From the IMG/VR virus record IMGVR_UViG_3300047157_000146: a DNA stretch of 21,298 bases; one strand, written 5' to 3'. The notes beneath the pieces were generated by a model that was not told the origin of the DNA, ran no database searches, and saw only the letters and a program-made list of their open reading frames with translations. The position numbers and the translations under genes are program-made. This document shows, piece by piece, positions 2,320 to 21,298 of the stretch. How positions within the stretch are numbered: the first letter of the stretch is position 1; each line of letters begins with the position of its first letter. Origin of the DNA: an uncultured virus (IMG/VR IMGVR_UViG_3300047157_000146) (Duplodnaviria; Heunggongvirae; Uroviricota; Caudoviricetes).

Positions 2320-2564
2320 TTGTATTCCTCCTTTATGTACCAAATATCTAGTTTATTTTTTTCATCATGTCCTATTTTTACAAAGCACTTTCTTTTCATT
2401 ATGTTGACAAGAACATTCATACTTTGAATATAGAAATGGTTGGACTTAGAACCTGTCCTATTATTTTTAAAATTAGAACAATAGTTCTGTATTTCTCTAG
2501 TGTTCTTTGGTCCGTTTCTCTCTAAGTATGTTTTTATTCTATTCTGTAATCTTTTATGTTTCAA
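2316..2564 (-). CDS. Small basic winged-helix protein, DUF3860-like (paralog 2)
   Basis: MKHKRLQNRIKTYLERNGPKNTREI...LVNIMKRKCFVKIG...W, with ATGA overlaps on both sides. Confidence 0.6.
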   Translation of the reverse strand: MKHKRLQNRIKTYLERNGPKNTREIQNYCSNFKNNRTGSKSNHFYIQSMNVLVNIMKRKCFVKIGHDEKNKLDIWYIKEEYK

Positions 2565-2749
2565 TTTTTATTCCTCCAGCCTTGTTCTATGCTAATTAAG
2601 TCAGCATATCTAGGTAGAATCTTGCTCAGTTCGGGCATAGTAATACCCCACTTTAGTTTCTTATTCAAGTAATTGTAAATTTCGTCAGTTGTTTTTGGTC
2701 CTGTTTTCAAATACCTTTTTAGATGCCTAATGGCTACAACATTGGCCAT
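2561..2749 (-). CDS. Small winged-helix protein, DUF3860-like (paralog 3)
   Basis: LKRYLKTGPKTTDEIYNYLNKKLKWGITMPELSKILPR matches the same pattern. It overlaps both neighbouring genes at their start/stop codons. Confidence 0.6.
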   Translation of the reverse strand: MANVVAIRHLKRYLKTGPKTTDEIYNYLNKKLKWGITMPELSKILPRYADLISIEQGWRNKN

Positions 2750-5952: not shown

Positions 5953-6298
5953 CTTCTTCCACATCCGAAAGAATCTTATTATGTATTCTAGGTATATTGG
6001 CAATCATAGTATTGATTGTATTCGATAGGTCATTAAGACCCTGTTGTTCTGCGGCGTACTGCATAAAGGTTAGAGTTCCAATAGTCACAGGCAATGCTAT
6101 GTGATTTATTTCTCCGCCTAGAATTAGACACCAATGAGAAACAAACGCTCCTCTTATCAATTCATTTGAGTTAGCAACTATTGGCCAAGATTCAGTAAAG
6201 GCTATTCTTTCCTTATGCGGTAGTTCTGCTGATGCTTCTACAGTCTTACACCAACTTACAAAGTTTTTCTGCTTAGTTCTGTTTCTCAATGTTCTCAT
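5939..6298 (-). CDS. Hypothetical protein
   Basis: 119-aa ORF with a TAATG overlap with the upstream gene and GGAGGA upstream. Confidence 0.65.
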   Translation of the reverse strand: MRTLRNRTKQKNFVSWCKTVEASAELPHKERIAFTESWPIVANSNELIRGAFVSHWCLILGGEINHIALPVTIGTLTFMQYAAEQQGLNDLSNTINTMIANIPRIHNKILSDVEEDEEE

Positions 6299-6501
6299 TA
6301 GTCTTCCTCCAATATTTCTCCTAGCATTTGGTATAGGAGTAGGGCTTCCTCTTTATTCATTCGTATTCCTTTCTTAGTAGGTTTATCATTCTTATACCAA
6401 CGAAGGTCTATTACATCAATCTTCCAATAGTTTCCTTGGTAGACTCTTATCGAGTCTTCGCTGTTTCTAGGTATCTCTCCTACGAATGCTAATTCACTCA
6501 A
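6298..6501 (-). CDS. PC4/Sub1-family ssDNA-binding / transcription co-activator protein
   Basis: IRVYQGNYWKIDVIDLRWYKNDKPTKKGIRM matches the PC4 signature D(I/L)RxxY...PTKKGI. Confidence 0.85.
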   Translation of the reverse strand: MSELAFVGEIPRNSEDSIRVYQGNYWKIDVIDLRWYKNDKPTKKGIRMNKEEALLLYQMLGEILEED

Positions 6502-9902: not shown

Positions 9903-10217
9903 TCAAATCAACTCCTTGAGTATGTTCCAAGATGAATTGTAAATACGATGATTGGTATAAGAACTCATGGCGTCAAGTGCTTGTTGAATGCCTTCACGCA
10001 ATCGCTCGACTTCTGCGAGGGCTTCAATGTACTTCTTCAAAATCTCATTGTCTCCTTTAACTGCTTCGGCCAGTGTATCGTTTTCTTCACGCAACCGCTT
10101 GACTTCTTCAAGGAGAAGTGGTGCGTCTGCTATGAGTAATTTATTTGCCTCGTTAGCCATATTTACTTTCGTGCCTTCCCAATTATCATGTCCTTCGTAT
10201 TTGTCTGTGTCAATCAT
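9903..10217 (-). CDS. Hypothetical coiled-coil protein (MIDTDKYEGH family, copy 1)
   Basis: Shares MIDTDKYEGH and DAPLLLxEVKRL with the adjacent ORF. It has an internal second LAEVERLRE. Confidence 0.65.
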   Translation of the reverse strand: MIDTDKYEGHDNWEGTKVNMANEANKLLIADAPLLLEEVKRLREENDTLAEAVKGDNEILKKYIEALAEVERLREGIQQALDAMSSYTNHRIYNSSWNILKELI

Positions 10218-10560
10218 TCAATCATCTCCTCTTGCTTCATCATTACATATTCATAGACGCTACCCATGTAGCCTTGTGATACTGAATCAAGCCATTCTTG
10301 ATAGGTGTCATTATCCTCTTCAGAATCCTTTGGAGAGAAGTCAGCAATAATGTCCCGCAGTTCTTTGTGTTCTTGTTCATACATCTGCAACCGCTTGACT
10401 TCTGCGAGCAGTAGTGGTGCGTCATGCAATAGTTCGGAGGTAGCCTCATATTGTTCAGTCGTTTCAGCGTTCTTTAGCATCCACTTAGACCAACACCAAG
10501 GTAGTCTTTCGTCTGCTCCGCTTGCTAAGTGTCCTTCGTATTTGTCTGTGTCAATCATTC
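10189..10560. repeat. 31-bp perfect direct repeat (10189-10219 and 10530-10560) plus a 17-bp repeat (10091-10107 and 10387-10403)
   Basis: TGTCCTTCGTATTTGTCTGTGTCAATCATTC occurs twice. GCAACCGCTTGACTTCT occurs twice, with a diverged third copy near 9997-10013. Confidence 0.9.
10214..10558 (-). CDS. Hypothetical protein (MIDTDKYEGH family, copy 2)
   Basis: The first 10 aa are identical to 9903..10217, and it contains HDAPLLLAEVKRL. Confidence 0.65.
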   Translation of the reverse strand: MIDTDKYEGHLASGADERLPWCWSKWMLKNAETTEQYEATSELLHDAPLLLAEVKRLQMYEQEHKELRDIIADFSPKDSEEDNDTYQEWLDSVSQGYMGSVYEYVMMKQEEMIE

Positions 10561-10779
10561 TTTATTCCCCCACATTTCATTTTCTTCTTGCCAATCCATA
10601 CCTTCGGTCATCTTGAGGTATCTTGTTTTGTATAGGTCTAATTCCTTACGCAACCACTTAACTTGTGCTAATGTGTTTTCATATTCTACAAATATGAACA
10701 TTTGAAAAGAACCCATTGGTTCCCCTGCTACCTGCCATTGTTCATACAATATTTCGTACCTTTCATCAATGTCAGTCAT
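10555..10779 (-). CDS. Hypothetical protein
   Basis: ATGA overlaps on both sides. Contains LAQVKWLRKE, similar to the neighbours' motif. Confidence 0.6.
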   Translation of the reverse strand: MTDIDERYEILYEQWQVAGEPMGSFQMFIFVEYENTLAQVKWLRKELDLYKTRYLKMTEGMDWQEENEMWGNKE

Positions 10780-11372
10780 TCTTCTTCACCGTCCCAATTC
10801 TTCTCTAGTAGCATTTCATTGATAGTAGTTTTAATTTCAGCAGGTTTGTATTCTCGCTTATGTTGCCTTCTGTCGTAGTCAAAGTTACGATAAATATCAA
10901 GTTGTTTGGGGTGCTTATTATTCCAAATACCATAGTGGCCTATGCCACCTAGAACAATTGCATTGTGCATCAAAGGTTCCCACTTACCAACAGTATTCCA
11001 ATCAGTGCCACTAAAATAAGCCGCACCAAACGGATGAGTATGAATCCAACACTTAATCGGTAGAGTCATTCCAACAGGGTCAACCTTGAAGGAAACAAAT
11101 CCAGCAGTACCAAAAGAAATGTGTAGATTATCTTTACCATCTACTACAACCTGTACTTCTAATCCATTAAGGATTTCAGTAGATGCTTTCCAAATAGCCT
11201 CGGTGAACTTTCTGTCTGACCAAACACCATCGAAATTATCTCTAATTAGTTTCTCTATTAGACCTTGACAGTGTGCTTCGTGGTCTGCTTCTGCTTCACC
11301 CCATTCATGTCTATCGTCGTCTTCTCCGTGTACCTTAATTTGCCATTTATGCCATTCTCCGCCTTTACTCAT
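10776..11372 (-). CDS. JAB/JAMM (MPN+) metalloprotease
   Basis: Complete JAMM signature H111-T-H113-x7-S121-x2-D124 (WIHTHPFGAAYFSGTDW), with a candidate upstream catalytic E72 (GLEVQVVVD). Confidence 0.85.
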   Translation of the reverse strand: MSKGGEWHKWQIKVHGEDDDRHEWGEAEADHEAHCQGLIEKLIRDNFDGVWSDRKFTEAIWKASTEILNGLEVQVVVDGKDNLHISFGTAGFVSFKVDPVGMTLPIKCWIHTHPFGAAYFSGTDWNTVGKWEPLMHNAIVLGGIGHYGIWNNKHPKQLDIYRNFDYDRRQHKREYKPAEIKTTINEMLLEKNWDGEEE

Positions 11373-11641
11373 TCCTCTTCCCCCTTGATTTTCATTAGTT
11401 GGTGGTTGACCGCCGCTTGTGTGTATAGTATTTTTTGTATTTCATACTCCTTTTTATCTAGAGTTTGACTAGTGAGACAGAATATTCTAAATCTGACCAC
11501 ATAATCATTACAAGAATCACAACAACGACCTTCTTCCAAAGGTTCGGCATTGTGTCCTTCACTCCAATACATAACTTCCTCTCCTTCAAGATTAGTCATA
11601 TACTTCTTATCTATATTACCACGACAAATACAGCACTTCAT
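11369..11641 (-). CDS. Small Cys-rich zinc-finger protein
   Basis: MKCCICRG...GHNAEPLEEGRCCDSCN, coupled by ATGA overlaps between E1 and JAB. Confidence 0.7.
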   Translation of the reverse strand: MKCCICRGNIDKKYMTNLEGEEVMYWSEGHNAEPLEEGRCCDSCNDYVVRFRIFCLTSQTLDKKEYEIQKILYTQAAVNHQLMKIKGEEE

Positions 11642-12231
11642 ACATTCACCACCATAAACGGATTAACGCTCTCTCCAGCAAACCATCGTTGCATCCACTG
11701 TGCCCCAATGCTAGCAATTACAGCGTGCATGAAGTGAATGCCTTCTTTACTACCATCCCAAGAATCTCCTTGACATGAGAAGGAACCATCCGGACCTGCT
11801 AGTAGCGTATCATAGGAAGAAGGTTCTGCTTGATAAGAAACAAGTGCCGCATTCCTTCCTTGAGAGCGAAGGTCTAGCCACTTTACTCCTTCTACATTTG
11901 CCTTGTATAACATTCGCCGTGTGTTCAAATTATCAACACAACAAACCACTAGGTCATATCCCTTCAATTGGTCATCAACTAGGATTGGATATTTATTTCC
12001 AATCTTTACTTGTTCATAGTTCATCTTCATAACTAACGCTTTGTTCTTTCCAACATCATCTGTGGTAAAGCGTTGGTATGTCACATTCTTTTCTTCTACA
12101 GTGTCGGGGTCGCTTACGGTAATCTCATAGAGTTCTCGCTCATAACTTCCATTCCCTGTTAGGTTGTCTAAAGTGTTAATGAGATAACTCCCAATTCCAC
12201 CGGCTCCAATTATTAGTATTTTTCTAGGCAT
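11638..12231 (-). CDS. ThiF/MoeB/E1-family ubiquitin-like activating enzyme (minimal)
   Basis: KILIIGAGGIGS nucleotide-binding loop, DPDTVEEKNVTYQ, VGKNKA, YDLVVCCVDNLNTRR, WLD. Candidate catalytic C153 in GSFSCQ. Confidence 0.9.
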   Translation of the reverse strand: MPRKILIIGAGGIGSYLINTLDNLTGNGSYERELYEITVSDPDTVEEKNVTYQRFTTDDVGKNKALVMKMNYEQVKIGNKYPILVDDQLKGYDLVVCCVDNLNTRRMLYKANVEGVKWLDLRSQGRNAALVSYQAEPSSYDTLLAGPDGSFSCQGDSWDGSKEGIHFMHAVIASIGAQWMQRWFAGESVNPFMVVNV

Positions 12232-13073
12232 TCTATTCCCTTTCCTTTTATTTGTTTTTTATCGGTATTAATTATTTTTAGAAGTCTTTTAACTTCTTGA
12301 CCAATGGCTTCATACCGAATACCACTAACCTGTCCAATCGTTTTATTTGTTATTTTTAAGTTCTCCATAATAGCCGCTATAGAACAATATGCGGCTGGAG
12401 TACTCGGTTTTGCGTTGTTATCAGTCTTCGATAATATATTATCAAAGTAAGTAGATAAGTGAGAAACCTTCCCAACAAAGGAAGGAAATTCATCTCCTAT
12501 TAACATAGCATACTTTTCAGCAAAGATTCTAGATTCTTTTCTTAAAAAGACTGAAGTGTTGTTTTCTTCTTTGGCAATCTTTCTTGCCAATTTGAATACC
12601 TGCTTCTTATTGCATTCGTATTCATGGCATACTTCCTTTAGTGTAAAGGGGAGACTATCGCTTCTTAGGCAATAGTAGACTAGTGCCGCCGCTCTTGTTT
12701 CGAGAGGAGATGTAGAGAAAACATGTTTTCTATAGAGTGACAAATAGAGTTCTTCTACATTAGTGAAAACTACAGAAGTCCTTGGTATCTTTAGTGAAGA
12801 CATTAGTAATCTGCACATAGACACTCCCTTATACACTGCTTTATTTTCAATTTTAGTAAAGGATAATGAGTTAGGTTTTATGGTCTGTAAACCCATCTCA
12901 TGTAAGTTTGTTGACCAGCGTTCTCGTATAATAGAGCCTTGATTATCTTGTAGGTATGTACCCTTTTCAAAAGGTTCTGTAACCATAACAAGACCGCAGT
13001 CTATACAAACTAATTCTCCCAAACCTTCATCGAAATTAAACTTCTTCGATTGGCATTCTAAACATATCATCAT
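12213..13073 (-). CDS. tfb: Transcription initiation factor TFB/TFIIB homolog
   Basis: N-terminal Zn ribbon CLECQS...GELVCIDCGLVM, then cyclin-fold repeats (AAALVYYCLR...PFTLKEV; KPSTPAAYCSIAA...ITNKTIGQVSGI). The start is one of several ATGs at 13070-13082. Confidence 0.9.
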   Translation of the reverse strand: MMICLECQSKKFNFDEGLGELVCIDCGLVMVTEPFEKGTYLQDNQGSIIRERWSTNLHEMGLQTIKPNSLSFTKIENKAVYKGVSMCRLLMSSLKIPRTSVVFTNVEELYLSLYRKHVFSTSPLETRAAALVYYCLRSDSLPFTLKEVCHEYECNKKQVFKLARKIAKEENNTSVFLRKESRIFAEKYAMLIGDEFPSFVGKVSHLSTYFDNILSKTDNNAKPSTPAAYCSIAAIMENLKITNKTIGQVSGIRYEAIGQEVKRLLKIINTDKKQIKGKGIECLEKY

Positions 13074-14322
13074 CATCACCATTATTTTCGTAAGCAGGAG
13101 AAAACAGTTTTTCTGTCATTTTGTCATTTTTAATTCTAGGTTTTTTCGCTAGCATATAAGTACCTAGCGTGCTTACTCTACCCACTGTCATTGAATCGTT
13201 TAGCAGCGAAAGAATCCTAGAAGCAAATTGGTCCCCCAAAGAAGGGTTTGCTCCTCCACTATTAATGCAAATAGAAGACCCCCATTTTGCGGAGGGTTCG
13301 GAACCAATTGCTAAGTGTACTAGCGTTCTAGTTGATACTGCTTGTACTCCTGAATATTTCTGCATGTGCGATTTACGCCCTACCAACAACCAATCTGAAG
13401 CCCTTCCTAGAACTATGATTCTTATTAATTCTTGAGTATCGTTTCTAAAGACTCTTTCTGGGTACTGTTTTAGTAAATCATCAAGTAGTGTCATTGCTCT
13501 TTCCTGTACTAACTTTTCGGAGCGGTTTTGTTCTAAGAAAGCATACATTAAATTCAACTCGGAGGACGAAGGTTCTTTACCAATAAGCCTGTAAAAGAGT
13601 TTAGAAGGACTAAGGAATTTCCAATTACCGTTCTTTTTTCCGTGTCGGTAAAAGCCAATCATAGTCAATAAATTGTTTTTAGATATTTTACCCCATAGAT
13701 TTGAACTAATTTCAATTGCATAGTCTTCTTCAGATATTTGCACAACTTTCAGTCTAACCGAAACAGTTCTTCCTTCTTTTAAGAAAGTATAGGGTAACCT
13801 AGAAACAAGAACATATCTAATATCTTCCGGAGTTAAAATCGCAGAATTAATTATTTTTCTAATTTCTCTACGACCTATGTCTTCTTCTCTTTGTTCTTTA
13901 GAAGAAAGGTCTAGTAAGATTCTGGATAATATGGAGGATATTTTAGACCTAGCCATATTTATTCCATTGATGGAATATGAACTACCCTTTTTACTAACTA
14001 ATACTTCTACTTCTTGTGAACATATTTTGAAAGTAAATACTAAGAACAAATCGTCAGGACTAAGAAACTTCGTTTCTCCATTATGTCGAATATAATAGTG
14101 CTGCGTTCTTCTATTATAAGCAGATTTTAGTATGCTTTTAAAGCCGCTAGTCGTCTGCGAAAGAATAGGGTCTGCCTCGTATAGTTGTGTGTGACTTAGG
14201 CGGATTTCTGAGGGGATTAGATGCTCCGAATGTCCCACCATTCTTCCATCATGTTCAAAGTGAACATGAAATTGCATATTTCCTCCGTAGTCTTTATCTC
14301 TTCTAAAATTTATTTCTCTCAT
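13036..14322 (-). CDS. 428-aa uncharacterised protein; C-terminal region has an E2-like Cys motif (tentative)
   Basis: The long ORF is solid. The segment HLAIGSEPSAKWGSSICINSGGANPSLGDQFASRILSLLND (C352) resembles the E2 core HPN..GxICL...P...I.SLL. The function is inferred only. Confidence 0.5.
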   Translation of the reverse strand: MREINFRRDKDYGGNMQFHVHFEHDGRMVGHSEHLIPSEIRLSHTQLYEADPILSQTTSGFKSILKSAYNRRTQHYYIRHNGETKFLSPDDLFLVFTFKICSQEVEVLVSKKGSSYSINGINMARSKISSILSRILLDLSSKEQREEDIGRREIRKIINSAILTPEDIRYVLVSRLPYTFLKEGRTVSVRLKVVQISEEDYAIEISSNLWGKISKNNLLTMIGFYRHGKKNGNWKFLSPSKLFYRLIGKEPSSSELNLMYAFLEQNRSEKLVQERAMTLLDDLLKQYPERVFRNDTQELIRIIVLGRASDWLLVGRKSHMQKYSGVQAVSTRTLVHLAIGSEPSAKWGSSICINSGGANPSLGDQFASRILSLLNDSMTVGRVSTLGTYMLAKKPRIKNDKMTEKLFSPAYENNGDDDDMFRMPIEEV

Positions 14323-14813: not shown

Positions 14814-15020
14814 TCAAAGAGAACCTCCGACAATAGCGGGGGTTAGGTCAATAGATTCCACAGTATCCCAATTGATACTTGAAATGTCTTGACGGCTAAT
14901 CATCTCTCCATCGACAAAAATCCAGTGTGTAGGATGGTTGTCGATTTGTTCAATGACTTCGGAAGAAGCCATCTCAACTTGTGTGTGTCCTGTTTCGTTT
15001 AAAATTCGTAGTGTAATCAT
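14814..15020 (-). CDS. Ubiquitin-like (beta-grasp, ThiS/SAMP-like) protein with C-terminal GG plus an SL extension
   Basis: Start ATG 15020 after AGGTGA; 68 aa: MITLRILNETGHTQVEM...WIFVDGEMI...W...ESIDLTPAIVGG-SL. The ending fits the ThiS/MoaD/SAMP terminal pattern. Confidence 0.8.
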   Translation of the reverse strand: MITLRILNETGHTQVEMASSEVIEQIDNHPTHWIFVDGEMISRQDISSINWDTVESIDLTPAIVGGSL

Positions 15021-15033
15021 AATATCACCTTTC

Positions 15034-16125
15034 TCATTTCTCCCATGTCCTACCACTATTTAAGCGGTCACTTTCCCTTCCTTGTTTGGCTTGCTCTATG
15101 GCGATAGCCCGTCCTAGTTGTAGTTTGGAGAATCTTTCTATGTCGCTGTTCTCCATGTTCAACTCTTGCGCTTTTTCAATTAGCCACTCATCGGGCGATT
15201 CTATAAAACGCTTGATAGTGTGAATGTCATCTGCACTTAATGATATGTAATTCGAGTTTCGATGTGCCATCAAATAACTATCATGCAACTTCCTAATGAA
15301 ATTCTTTTCAGCAGGGGATAGGAATTCCCAATTCTGTAAATAGCCTTTATCGGAAAAACCATACCATTCTAACATTTCACTAGTAGACCACTTGGTTCTC
15401 TTATCTTCTAGTGACTTTCGATAGCCAGTATATTCTTCTTCTGTAAAAGAGCGTCCATTGATTGTCGCTCCTCCAACAAATCTGTAAAAGTAATCTAGGT
15501 CGGCTAATAATGACTTGTTAGGATAACCCCTGCCATTTATTTGCGCTCTACGATTATTGGGATGGTTCCATCTCCAAACAATAGAGGCCATACCTTCCCT
15601 ATTGGCTCTCTTTCGTAATTTGGAACCCCTAAAATTACTAGTCACATTCAGCCTTAAGTCCAATTCTCGTACTGCTGTGAATTTCTCAACAAAATCTTCA
15701 CCATGCTTAGACCACCATGCTTCATTCTTCATTCCTTCAATACGAACAGAAATCCATTCTTCAATCATAGCGTCTGTGATAAGTTCTCTATCAATTCCCG
15801 TACTCTTTTCAATCTCTTTCAAGATAAGATATGAGTTGATGTGGTCGGAACCTACTGCAATAACTAAGCCGTTTATAATATTCCTAATAGCGAAGTGGTA
15901 CACAATACTGTGTCCACACAAACAATAGCCGTAAGTTCTTCTAACCCATCTAGGCATTTCGGCACTATCTTCTCCGTTCCACCACCAACATTCTCCGGTG
16001 GCTTCCCATTCTAGTTTAGCATCATCGTAGTTGTCAGCCTCAGATAAGAAAGTGATTTCCCTCTTTAGTACTCGGTCCCATCGGCCATTTCCTAAGTTTC
16101 TTTTGTACTTGGTAGTCAAGCCCAT
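15034..16125 (-). CDS. Hypothetical protein with a putative metal-binding motif
   Basis: 363 aa; YCLCGHSIVYHFAIRNIINGLVIAVGSDHI is a CxCGH...VGSx(H/C)I pattern. Confidence 0.65.
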   Translation of the reverse strand: MGLTTKYKRNLGNGRWDRVLKREITFLSEADNYDDAKLEWEATGECWWWNGEDSAEMPRWVRRTYGYCLCGHSIVYHFAIRNIINGLVIAVGSDHINSYLILKEIEKSTGIDRELITDAMIEEWISVRIEGMKNEAWWSKHGEDFVEKFTAVRELDLRLNVTSNFRGSKLRKRANREGMASIVWRWNHPNNRRAQINGRGYPNKSLLADLDYFYRFVGGATINGRSFTEEEYTGYRKSLEDKRTKWSTSEMLEWYGFSDKGYLQNWEFLSPAEKNFIRKLHDSYLMAHRNSNYISLSADDIHTIKRFIESPDEWLIEKAQELNMENSDIERFSKLQLGRAIAIEQAKQGRESDRLNSGRTWEK

Positions 16126-16364
16126 TCCTCCGTATCCATTTTTTCGTTTTGACGCTGTTCCAATAAGAATCCATTAAGAATCTCATCCATCTTGTCTTGT
16201 AGGTTATCAATAATACCTGCAATAACTCGACGGTTAAGGCTAATCCAAATTCTATGGTGTGTATTCAATACAACCTTTGGTTCATCGTTCTCGTTCATGC
16301 TAATTACCATAGGTGGCATGTGTTCATTGTCAATCAATTTAAATTCAACTGTTGTTCTATTCAT
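16116..16364 (-). CDS. Hypothetical protein
   Basis: 82-aa ORF with GAGG upstream, overlapping both neighbours. Confidence 0.6.
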   Translation of the reverse strand: MNRTTVEFKLIDNEHMPPMVISMNENDEPKVVLNTHHRIWISLNRRVIAGIIDNLQDKMDEILNGFLLEQRQNEKMDTEEWA

Positions 16365-17063: not shown

Positions 17064-17135
17064 TTTAATTCCTCATTATTAGGCATTGCACCTTTCCGGT
17101 AGTCATTGATAGCACTACTACACTATTTGAATGAG

Positions 17136-17210
17136 TGGAACAAACAGGATTTGAACCTGTGGTCACTCGGTTATGAGCCGAGAGCATTAACCAAACTATG
17201 CTATTGTTCC
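17136..17210 (-). tRNA. tRNA with CAU anticodon (elongator Met or Ile2)
   Basis: GGAACAA/TTGTTCC acceptor, GCAT/ATGC D stem, CTCGG-CTCATAA-CCGAG anticodon arm, ACAGG-TTCAAAT-CCTGT T arm, discriminator A, no encoded CCA. It lacks the three G-C pairs of an initiator anticodon stem. Confidence 0.93.
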
Positions 17211-17215
17211 GTAGG

Positions 17216-17298
17216 TGTCGAAGGCAGGATTTGAACCTGCGAACCATTTAGGACAGGAGTTTAAGCCCTGCGTGTTTGACCTACTCCACCACTTCGAC
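17216..17298 (-). tRNA. tRNA-Leu(UAA)
   Basis: GTCGAAG/CTTCGAC acceptor, CAGGG-CTTAAAC-TCCTG anticodon arm, long variable region, GCAGG-TTCAAAT-CCTGC T arm, discriminator A. Confidence 0.93.
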
Positions 17299-17300
17299 AT

Positions 17301-17375
17301 TGGCGAGCGCAACAGGAGTCGAACCCGTATCACCGGCTTAGAAGGCCAGTATGCTATCCATTACACCATGCGCTC
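17301..17375 (-). tRNA. tRNA-Arg(UCU)
   Basis: GAGCGCA/TGCGCTC acceptor, CTGGC-CTTCTAA-GCCGG anticodon arm, ACGGG-TTCGACT-CCTGT T arm, discriminator G and encoded CCA. Confidence 0.93.
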
Positions 17376-17609
17376 ATTTGTCAATTTCCATATATTGACA
17401 GAATAACTGTACTGACTAAATTCAGCAATTACTCTTTCGGTTCCAATCTTTTCAAATTGTTTGTGTCGAGATAGAAGATTACCAATCTTACTACCACCCG
17501 AAGCCTCCTTCGGCCAGCGATTTTGATACTCGTCTAGTATCTCCGCCGTGTTTTTACTTCCATTTTCTAGTATTTTCTCTAATCTTTCGATTGTTCTCTT
17601 GTTTGCCAT
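17361..17609 (-). CDS. Small winged-helix protein, DUF3860-like (paralog 4)
   Basis: Likely start ATG 17609. RLEKILENGSKNTAEILDEY...IGNLLSRHKQFEKIG...VNIWKL. The last codons overlap the 5' end of tRNA-Arg. Confidence 0.65.
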   Translation of the reverse strand: MANKRTIERLEKILENGSKNTAEILDEYQNRWPKEASGGSKIGNLLSRHKQFEKIGTERVIAEFSQYSYSVNIWKLTNERMV

Positions 17610-17623
17610 ACCGCCACCATGCT

Positions 17624-17920
17624 TCACATGATGCTCCAATTCAAAAGATATTCGGCGTTGCCATTAGCAACACTATACTCTAAGGCTCTAACAGATTCTT
17701 CTTCATGGTGGTTTCTTTCCACTATAATAGAGGCAAGACAAAGACCTAGCCTCTCCTTAGAAAGTTTCTCGGACAGTACGCTAGCAATCTTAATTGCTAG
17801 TTCTTCTTTCAAACGCTCCTCCCACATTAAACAGTAGCAGGGTTCTTTGTAGAGAACATCATGGGTATGACACTCTACAATTCGTTCCCCTGTTCCATTA
17901 CATTCATTGCATTCGCTCAT
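17624..17920 (-). CDS. Hypothetical protein with an N-terminal CxxCxGxG zinc-finger motif
   Basis: MSECNECNGTGE...EPCYC, with an ATGA overlap upstream. Confidence 0.6.
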   Translation of the reverse strand: MSECNECNGTGERIVECHTHDVLYKEPCYCLMWEERLKEELAIKIASVLSEKLSKERLGLCLASIIVERNHHEEESVRALEYSVANGNAEYLLNWSIM

Positions 17921-20884: not shown

Positions 20885-21130
20885 ATTCCATTATTCTAAT
20901 TCTAATTTTCGTTTCCAAATCCCAAACGCTATACTGCTCCCAAGTTTCCAACTTTCTAAGTTTCTAACCCCTAGATACTTAGAGAGAGTGTGTGATAGAT
21001 AGATTCACACTCTCATAGATAGAATAGATATTAGAATAATTAGAATATTAGAATAATGTATAAAAACAGGGTTTTTAACCCTTTCAGGCCACTTTTCGAT
21101 TCCAATTCCACTTGGAATCACGCTGGAATC
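20885..21130. repeat. Convergent TTCYAA/TTRGAA repeats around a GAGAGTGTG...CACACTCTC palindrome (candidate replication origin or regulatory region)
   Basis: TTCYAA at 20894, 20900, 20913, 20946, 20954 and 20962; inverted repeat 20984-20992/21006-21014; TTAGAATA at 21031, 21040 and 21048; further inverted repeat GATTCCAA/TTGGAATC at 21098-21119. Confidence 0.6.
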
Positions 21131-21298
21131 TTCAAACTTATCATCTATAGTATATGTAATATAAGCCCAATTGAAGTACTGCTAGTGTTAAATCAATATT
21201 AAACCAATAATAATAGTACCCCTTAAATTGTAAGTTCTTTAGTGGTTGTAACTAGGTAGTGGACTTTGTAGATACCCCTATAGTCCGATACCCTTATT

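Follow-up and report, generated by a model that had tools for sequence, protein, structure and literature searches.

The TFB gene of the window

The stretch analysed here, referred to as the window, is the 21,298-nucleotide (nt) DNA of the uncultured virus record IMGVR_UViG_3300047157_000146 (IMG/VR; Caudoviricetes). The gene under study is located on its minus strand and encodes a member of the TFB/TFIIB family of transcription initiation factors. It is flanked upstream by a gene for an E2-like protein and downstream by a ThiF/E1-type gene; genes for a candidate ubiquitin-like protein (Ubl) and for a JAB metallopeptidase lie close by. An earlier note, made from the sequence alone, had described a Zn-ribbon/cyclin-fold TFB which overlaps the E2-like gene upstream and the E1 gene downstream; the open reading frame (ORF), both overlaps and TFB homology over the full length were found. 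The gene and its parts are as follows:

12213..13082, minus strand: TFB/TFIIB-family gene, 289 amino acids (aa) counted from the first ATG; stop codon at 12213-12215
12960..13070, minus strand: Zn ribbon, residues 5-41 (Pfam PF08271 above cut-off)
12852..12959, minus strand: shortened ribbon-to-core connector, residues 42-77 (hhalign column mapping and length counts)
12273..12851, minus strand: two cyclin-like repeats (TFB core), residues ~78-270 (phmmer, PDB profile and hhalign)
12216..12272, minus strand: family-specific C-terminal tail, NT.KK.I.GKGIE.LE.Y, overlapped in its last codons by the beginning of the E1 gene

The earlier note placed the start at 13073, which comes fourth in a series of five Met codons close to the beginning of the gene. 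The ORF opens at 13082 and the likely start is 13070-13073, because relatives begin with M-x-C. The ORF overlaps the upstream 428-aa gene (13036-14322) by 38-47 nt and the downstream ThiF/E1 gene (11638-12231) by 19 nt.

Homology of the TFB product

The Zn ribbon was recognized by Pfam PF08271 (Zn_Ribbon_TF) with E 1.3e-8 and 34.6 bits (cut-off 29). The Pfam TFIIB cyclin repeat stayed below its cut-off in the window TFB (17.1 vs 23.6 bits) and was above it in the relative L016 (26.1 bits). The NCBIfam model for archaeal TFB, NF001658, matched with E 5.4e-11, but with 42.1 bits against a cut-off of 384. Using phmmer against the PDB sequences, the core of Pyrococcus woesei TFB (1ais_B) was matched by residues 93-269 with E 6e-5, and human TFIIB was matched as well. 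When a profile of 13 TFB relatives was used instead of the single sequence, all eight PDB matches were TFB/TFIIB (best E 6.1e-9 for the core, residues 93-265; next 1.5e-8). Profile-profile comparison with 13 canonical-looking TFBs in hhalign gave a probability of 99.84% and E 2.4e-30 over 270 aligned columns (query 6-282).

The AlphaFold model of the TFB is mediocre, with a mean predicted local distance difference test (pLDDT) value of 57.6, the first cyclin repeat alone being near 80. The top 40 rows of a Foldseek search with this poor model were all TFIIB, TFB or Brf chains, at a template modelling score of ~0.35. By sequence comparison, the product of 12213-13082 was thus confirmed as a true TFB/TFIIB homologue over its whole length, with a match far beyond chance. 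The description as a viral TFB was likewise supported.

Departures from canonical TFB

Canonical archaeal TFB and TFIIB (PDB 1AIS and 1D3U from Pyrococcus woesei; NF001658) share with the viral protein the ribbon, the connector, two cyclin repeats and the C-terminal helix-turn-helix. The viral TFB differs in having a changed reader, a connector shorter by ~30 residues, an altered recognition helix and an extra conserved tail. Motifs are given in the register of the hhalign profile method; MAFFT set the same motifs a few columns differently.

The ribbon cysteines C7, C10, C26 and C29 are invariant in an alignment of 22 sequences including canonical TFBs. The B-reader segment is present, but with other residues instead of the signature W, R, G and P: the reader helix has E-K-G-T-Y opposite canonical E-W-R-x-F, and the reader loop has R-E-R-W-S opposite R-x-G-x-P. 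The adjoining strand motif is retained, with H-E-M-G-L-Q-T compared to canonical H-D-x-G-L-S-T. About 26 template columns, including the R-L-R-K-W linker helix, have no counterpart in the viral protein. In agreement with the earlier note, the region after the ribbon is therefore divergent and lacks the usual B-reader pattern. The ERW remnant which the note mentioned exists, but at the position of the reader loop rather than at PEWRAF; and its account of the divergence, right for the reader, overlooked the retained strand motif.

The shortening is also visible in length counts. Between the last ribbon cysteine and the first core helix, 48 residues are found in the window TFB and 40-50 in the 12 closer viral TFBs (window included), compared to 76-82 in seven of eight canonical TFBs and 65 in the eighth. 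Two more distant members of the viral family (P0046 and P0062) have connectors of 59-63 residues and retain an R-L-R-type segment. At the C-terminal end, I-R-Y-E-A-I-G-Q-E-V-K stands opposite canonical V-T-E-V-T-I-R-N-R-Y-K (hhalign and alignment). This last helix, which aligns with the helix-turn-helix reading the TFIIB recognition element in canonical TFB, lacks the R-N-R-Y-K residues. The Lys/Gly-rich tail is conserved in the clade of the window and in part in more distant viral TFBs. In TFB and TFIIB, linker helix and reader matter for promoter opening and start-site choice (PMC3025549).

A TFB reduced in this way might act as a decoy, i.e., it could bind the host RNA polymerase or the TBP-DNA complex, be unable to open promoters, compete with the host TFB and shut down host transcription. 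The missing linker-helix segment, the replaced reader signature and the fully conserved ribbon would suit such an inhibitor, and a virus-encoded repressor of archaeal RNA polymerase is known (ORF145/RIP, PMC5123050). However, the core with its DNA-facing helix-turn-helix and the conserved tail are kept under selection at 20-35% identity, which exceeds what a ribbon decoy would need. In five related viral records, of which four are estimated to be complete, no TBP gene was found; if a TBP is used, it must therefore come from the host. RNA polymerase was likewise missing from these records, and viral genes therefore still need an initiation route. Furthermore, initiation is still achieved by natural TFB paralogues whose reader is degenerate. 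Pyrococcus TFB2 and Sulfolobus TFB3 are cellular paralogues with a degenerate reader or a truncated body; in these, reader or linker lack conservation, and they act as alternative or auxiliary initiation factors. They are host genes, whereas the viral TFB forms a large clade of its own, tied to Ubl-system genes. A decoy function was judged unlikely.

Family size and phylogeny

A word-indexed search gave 13 clusters of close TFB relatives. The family profile, used in an exhaustive search of 1.84 billion representatives, matched 345 proteins at E ≤ 0.001 and 26 at E ≤ 1e-30. Among the 150 matches listed, sequences with a canonical reader motif scored between 3e-10 and 4e-7.

For a quick FastTree analysis, fragments < 240 aa, rows > 360 aa and three near-identical rows were removed. 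Of the 127 full-length rows, 95 viral-like sequences were separated with support 98 from 32 sequences which hold all canonical-looking TFBs; the window TFB belongs to a well-supported clade of nine. No affinity of the viral TFBs to a particular host lineage was visible in this tree, which took in no Poseidoniales TFBs. The named members of the nearest canonical clusters are Thaumarchaeota, unclassified archaea and a mis-binned bacterial metagenome-assembled genome, and are uninformative on the host.

Scanning 185,579 species genomes with the thermosome protein of the window and with the viral TFB alignment yielded no relative. A contig scan with a single distant TFB (P0014) gave no match. In an annotated phage collection, which seemingly does not contain magroviruses, no match to the TFB and just three distant phage ThiF matches were obtained.

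Neighbouring genes

The genes around the TFB are listed in the direction of reading:

14814..15020, minus strand: ubiquitin-like candidate, 68 aa, with C-terminal LTPAIVGG plus two variable residues
14327..14768, minus strand: two small genes between the Ubl and E2-like genes, 96 aa and 52 aa, the latter with a CxxC...C Zn-finger look
13036..14322, minus strand: 428-aa gene, always adjoining the TFB gene upstream; residues 1-265 belong to no recognised family
13099..13527, minus strand: UBC/RWD-like (E2-like) C-terminal domain of the 428-aa protein, residues ~266-408 (VIA-align)
11638..12231, minus strand: ThiF/E1-like adenylating enzyme, 197 aa (Pfam ThiF; GAGGIG, invariant Cys153)
11369..11641, minus strand: Cys-rich protein (CxxC ... 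CxxC), 90 aa, between the E1 and JAB genes, not always present
10776..11372, minus strand: JAMM/MPN+ (JAB) metallopeptidase, 198 aa, with invariant HTHPFGxAYFSGTD at 11001-11042

The E1 gene, correctly named as such in the earlier note, matched Pfam ThiF (PF00899) with E 2.1e-16 and 60.2 bits (cut-off 28.1). The motifs GxGGxG, D-x-D-x-V and DN...RR are invariant in 11 sequences, as is Cys153. Its best NCBIfam match was PRTRC ThiF (2.1e-16, below the cut-off of that model), and the PADLOC E1-E2 models matched with 2.7e-8.

For the 428-aa protein, no match was obtained in Pfam, NCBIfam, PADLOC, PHROGs or the PDB sequences, and the E2 families in Pfam match 0 of 43 members of its family. The AlphaFold 2 model is good (pLDDT 78.3). 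VIA-align against 48,161 chains gave a best Z of 5.4 to Ubc9 for residues 270-382 (95 aligned residues, root-mean-square deviation 3.4), whereby a Z under 8 can reflect a common arrangement. Judged by their titles, 38 of 50 rows were E2, RWD or UEV proteins. Foldseek with this model returned nothing at E 0.001 or better, and the Atlas model was poor and gave nothing usable. In all 43 sequences compared, Cys352 (codon 13267-13269) is unchanged; it is located just after the last strand. The modelled fold makes it plausible that the 428-aa protein is E2-like; the assignment, already proposed in the earlier note, thus stands at the level of fold (Z 5.4, invariant Cys352) but not at that of sequence families (0 of 43).

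In the JAB protein, H111-T-H113 ... S121-G-T-D124 has the exact HxHx7Sx2D spacing, and E72 is invariant upstream in the alignment. No curated family model in Pfam or NCBIfam was matched; all 18 weak PDB matches of the JAB profile are JAMM deubiquitinases (best 0.067). In the 68-aa protein, LTPAIVGG is invariant and followed by two variable residues in 8/8 sequences. GG plus two residues is the form expected of a Ubl precursor, and the protein is regarded as a candidate Ubl. It gave no Pfam or PDB match, and in the Atlas, ThiS was the closest cluster with a name (0.82), which is a lead only. Ubl, E1, JAB and E2-like proteins together plausibly form a Ubl toolkit around the TFB.

The remaining small genes are less constant. 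The 90-aa Cys-rich gene is missing from four of 13 JAB-holding loci (L007, L009, L012 and L014; tblastn) and was found in 5/67 distant loci (phmmer). The 96-aa and 52-aa genes, in 8/67 and 36/67 distant loci respectively, are conserved solely among close relatives. Two proteins of no known family, 363 aa (15034-16125, minus strand) and 82 aa (16116-16364, minus strand), are encoded directly upstream of the Ubl gene. Each is near the TFB gene in 50/67 distant loci, and both proteins may be further members of the module.

Contigs from RNA libraries (four runs) fell on parts of the JAB, E1, Ubl, 96-aa and 363-aa genes and none on the TFB or 428-aa genes. Such contigs cannot show absence, and DNA was possibly present in the libraries, hence, no conclusion on expression was drawn.

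Gene order across relatives

In 13 loci obtained with the profile of the window clade, the order is 363-aa gene, Ubl, 96 aa, 52 aa, 428 aa, TFB, E1, (90 aa), JAB; in the more distant half of them, the JAB gene lies two genes further on. Loci retrieved with three other TFB sub-alignments (51, 57 and 14 loci, some contigs being repeated) have the same order wherever the stretch reaches, and this was so in all 71 loci added to the first ones. The check proposed in the earlier note, whether tfb keeps its position between the E2-like gene and the E1 gene in related viruses, thus did not refute it: the position was retained in every locus with sufficient flanks.

For gap counts, the first 66 loci were reduced to 43 non-redundant ones. 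ORF starts were set to the first possible start codon, so overlaps may be overstated. The gap from the E2-like to the TFB gene is -98 to +2 nt in 41/41 loci. From TFB to E1 it is -29 to 2154 nt (median 444; 41/41), from E1 to JAB -26 to 1328 nt and from Ubl to the E2-like gene 374 to 2877 nt (38 loci).

Non-redundant loci with 6 kb of sequence on either side numbered 74; the 67 of them outside the group of the window are the distant loci, in which the TFB is present by selection. Only the Ubl, E2-like, E1 and JAB genes were found in 67/67, other genes of the window in 59, 55, 50, 50, 36, 33 or fewer. These counts stem from single-sequence phmmer searches, which are less sensitive for short proteins. 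Loci were also selected independently of the TFB, by a scan with the E1 alignment, using the best 80 of 296 matching stretches. Among these, the TFB gene was found upstream on the same strand in 60/60 loci with 3.5 kb of upstream sequence, the E2-like gene within 150 nt of it in 54/55 (the exception being 170 nt) and the JAB gene downstream in 79/79. In every locus examined, the E2-like/TFB junction is ≤ 170 nt.

Conservation differs between the five proteins. Across 81 distant loci, the median identity to the window amounts to 63.5% for Ubl, 52.0% for E1, 52.7% for JAB, 31.2% for the E2-like protein and 28.4% for TFB. The well-conserved trio Ubl, E1 and JAB looks like the chemistry part of the system, and the fast-evolving E2-like and TFB pair like its host-facing or specificity part.

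The five genes remain linked although their surroundings and the genes in between are exchanged, which is more than expected from gene-order drift. Nonetheless, TFB and Ubl genes may simply be independent core genes of an early or replicative block, whose order reflects vertical inheritance only. The whole 21-kb window is one strand of packed, often overlapping genes, other genes of the block are also widely found near the TFB (59, 55, 50 and 50 of 67), and the TFB-E1 (up to 2154 nt) and Ubl-E2-like (up to 2877 nt) distances vary, with inserted genes. Mere neighbourhood does not readily explain that just five genes occur in 67/67 distant loci amid changing surroundings, or that the E2-like/TFB junction is never wider than 170 nt. 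We regard it as a serious contender, at somewhat below an even chance.

The term ubiquitin-like operon, used in the earlier note, is too strong. The array of the window belongs to a longer series of overlapping genes, which extends from ~16.4 kb to 8.5 kb and in which gaps do not exceed 45 nt. The array is therefore not a separate operon; in relatives, unrelated genes occur inside it.

Proposed function of the viral TFB

The gene encodes a genuine but reduced viral TFB, and it occupies a constant place inside the Ubl/E2-like/E1/JAB array throughout this virus group. It counts among the core genes in a large group of marine archaeal, magrovirus-like viruses. Judged from sequence and gene order, this virus-borne, reduced member of the TFB/TFIIB family probably serves as a virus-specific initiation factor, and the five genes form a conserved array. 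The earlier note had likewise suggested an alternative initiation factor which may redirect the host polymerase. According to this proposal, the host RNA polymerase would still be contacted by the ribbon, and TBP and promoter DNA by the core. A different preference for the upstream element or start site could result from the altered reader and recognition helix, and the linker would be less important for promoter opening. The host polymerase would thereby serve viral promoters, the viral TFB being the virus's own initiation factor.

Several findings weigh against this proposal. The missing linker helix and the altered reader may make the protein a poor or non-functional initiator. The TFB region has almost no intergenic space, and no distinct viral promoter motif is in hand. 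The model confidence for the second cyclin repeat and the connector is low. Concerning the array, a ribonucleotide reductase lies inside it, between the Ubl and E2-like genes, in L016; this ribonucleotide-reductase-like gene (L016 4457-6334, plus strand, 625 aa) is found in one large group of relatives and fits the ribonucleotide reductase of group B magroviruses (PMC5434244). In L009-L014, a pyrimidine-dimer glycosylase and a small gene lie between E1 and JAB. All loci stem from one viral lineage with collinear core genes, the E1-based scan took in its best 80 stretches, and a core gene block inherited in collinear form may underlie the conserved order.

The TFB may also be a substrate or partner of the tagging system, as the earlier note had proposed. 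In this reading, the TFB-like protein would be the main substrate of the Ubl cascade or an adaptor which brings the E2-like enzyme to the host transcription machinery, so that RNA polymerase, TBP and host TFB are tagged for proteasome removal or changed in function. The E2-like gene invariably adjoins the TFB gene with overlapping reading frames, the large N-terminal region of its product could pick substrates, both proteins evolve similarly fast while Ubl, E1 and JAB are conserved, and the four other genes co-occur with the TFB in 67/67 distant loci. In Haloferax, the general factor TBP2 is Ubl-tagged and degraded (PMC4895103). Adjacency, however, is the sole evidence for a role in tagging, and neighbouring genes often encode proteins which do not bind each other; furthermore, unrelated genes interrupt the array in relatives, and the E2 assignment is based on a modest Z of 5.4 with sequence-family support of 0/43. 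Predicting a complex of the 428-aa protein and the TFB, each supplied as an alignment, gave a score of 0.00 and no verdict, which speaks neither for nor against binding. We consider such a role in tagging rather unlikely.

Initiation and tagging might also be coupled, in that the fast-evolving E2-like protein, steered by the viral TFB or acting upon it, tags host TFB, TBP or polymerase for removal and the linker-less viral TFB replaces the host factor on viral promoters. This combination appears improbable. If true, a prokaryotic virus would combine protein tagging with replacement of a general transcription factor, and the protein would be a natural minimal TFB for dissecting the role of the linker. 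If the two are uncoupled, these viruses still have a clear signature of five genes, and a defined protein set is gained.

Comparison with known systems

Virus-borne TFBs are rare, and none was studied biochemically as far as the searched literature shows. TFB homologues were reported for Asgard wyrdviruses and earlier only in some rod-shaped viruses (10.1101/2021.07.29.453957). A gene labelled TFB is present on the genome map of magrovirus YSH_150918 in the Aoguangviridae profile of the ICTV, the international virus taxonomy committee (PMC10768690), and the order SF1, TFB, RFC-S of the abbreviations in its legend matches the gene order of the window. According to a review (PMC5569661), archaeal viruses presumably rely on the TBP and TFB of their hosts. 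The TFBs of wyrdviruses, rod-shaped viruses and YSH_150918 are likewise virus-borne, but neither a reduced linker nor a link to Ubl, E1 and JAB genes is described for them in the literature searched; there, no published account of a TFB-Ubl linkage or of a reduced linker was found at all.

In the main text of the magrovirus papers searched, TFIIB, ubiquitin, ThiF and JAB are not mentioned, and supplements or figures could hold such annotations. In the portions of the ICTV profiles consulted, ubiquitin and ThiF are unmentioned for Aoguangviridae and Apasviridae, and TFIIB for Apasviridae. A host-prediction paper counts a ThiF/MoeB gene among the most prevalent auxiliary genes of archaeal viruses, and E1-like genes are reported for an Asgard virus in a preprint.

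Prokaryotic gene sets of Ubl, E1, E2 and JAB were described by Iyer, Burroughs and Aravind in 2006 (PMC1779556). Known sets such as the PRTRC cassette and Bil defence, as well as the archaeal SAMP/UbaA/JAMM system, share with the viral array a ThiF-type E1 and a JAMM peptidase; the GG-ended small protein with a short, putatively trimmable tail and the UBC-like protein with a Cys are candidates for further common members. The best NCBIfam match of the E1 is to PRTRC ThiF, with a weak BilD match, and the family scores lie far below the curated cut-offs. In contrast to the known sets, the E2-like protein of the magrovirus-like viruses has 428 aa with a large N-terminal part of no known family, the genes occupy ~4-8 kb and are interspersed with others, and the TFB is a constant member of the array. 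We know of no described system in which a TFB is a constant member of a Ubl gene set; no search aimed at it was made. In the present case, an entire order of abundant ocean viruses retains a TFB which lacks the promoter-opening element and is always wedged into the Ubl/E2-like/E1/JAB set.

Viral setting of the window

The minus strand carries all long ORFs of the window, which follow each other closely, often overlap and leave few gaps. Besides the genes described above, the window encodes RFC, an ATP-dependent ligase, a group II chaperonin (thermosome), a superfamily 1 (SF1) helicase and a pyrimidine-dimer glycosylase. The related loci are all IMG/VR viral contigs of 14-185 kb, and DNA of the window was matched in viral-fraction and seawater metagenomes of several studies. 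Thermosome genes are known from magrovirus groups A and D (PMC5434244). Because of such gene content, the window looks like part of a magrovirus, i.e., a virus of Marine Group II archaea. A scan for σ70 promoters gave hits at the level of shuffled controls and was discarded, the model not being applicable to archaea.

Genes for three tRNAs, Met(CAT), Leu(TAA) and Arg(TCT), lie side by side at 17135-17375 (minus strand). A 60-aa ORF at 17065-17247 and the start of the ORF at 17361-17639 overlap them, and both are probably not genes. Leu and Arg tRNAs occur in group B magroviruses (PMC5434244).

The largest non-coding stretch is 20952-21298 (minus strand). It contains a TTTTTATACA box, then three copies of ATTCTAAT, plus repeated CTATCTAT, and could be a promoter or control region heading the long leftward gene block.

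Two weak Pfam matches below cut-off were noted, to PC4/p15 at 6298-6501 (minus strand, 3.1e-4) and to the TFIIE-beta core at 2561-2749 (minus strand, 2.2e-3). The PC4-like gene is retained near the TFB gene in 55/67 distant loci; on the strength of this match, its product may be a single-stranded-DNA binder or another transcription-related protein.

A pair of adjacent small paralogous genes encoding 104 and 114 aa (9903-10558, minus strand) is missing from nearly all relatives; both proteins begin with MIDTDKYEGH and share 40% identity. Finally, several proteins of the window end in acidic tails, namely GEEE, GEEE, NEDE, TQEE and RNEE at the gene ends 10776, 11369, 14478, 16713 and 9594, respectively. 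Where these genes end, the next gene begins within a few bases, and the tails may be translated ribosome-binding sites of the downstream genes.

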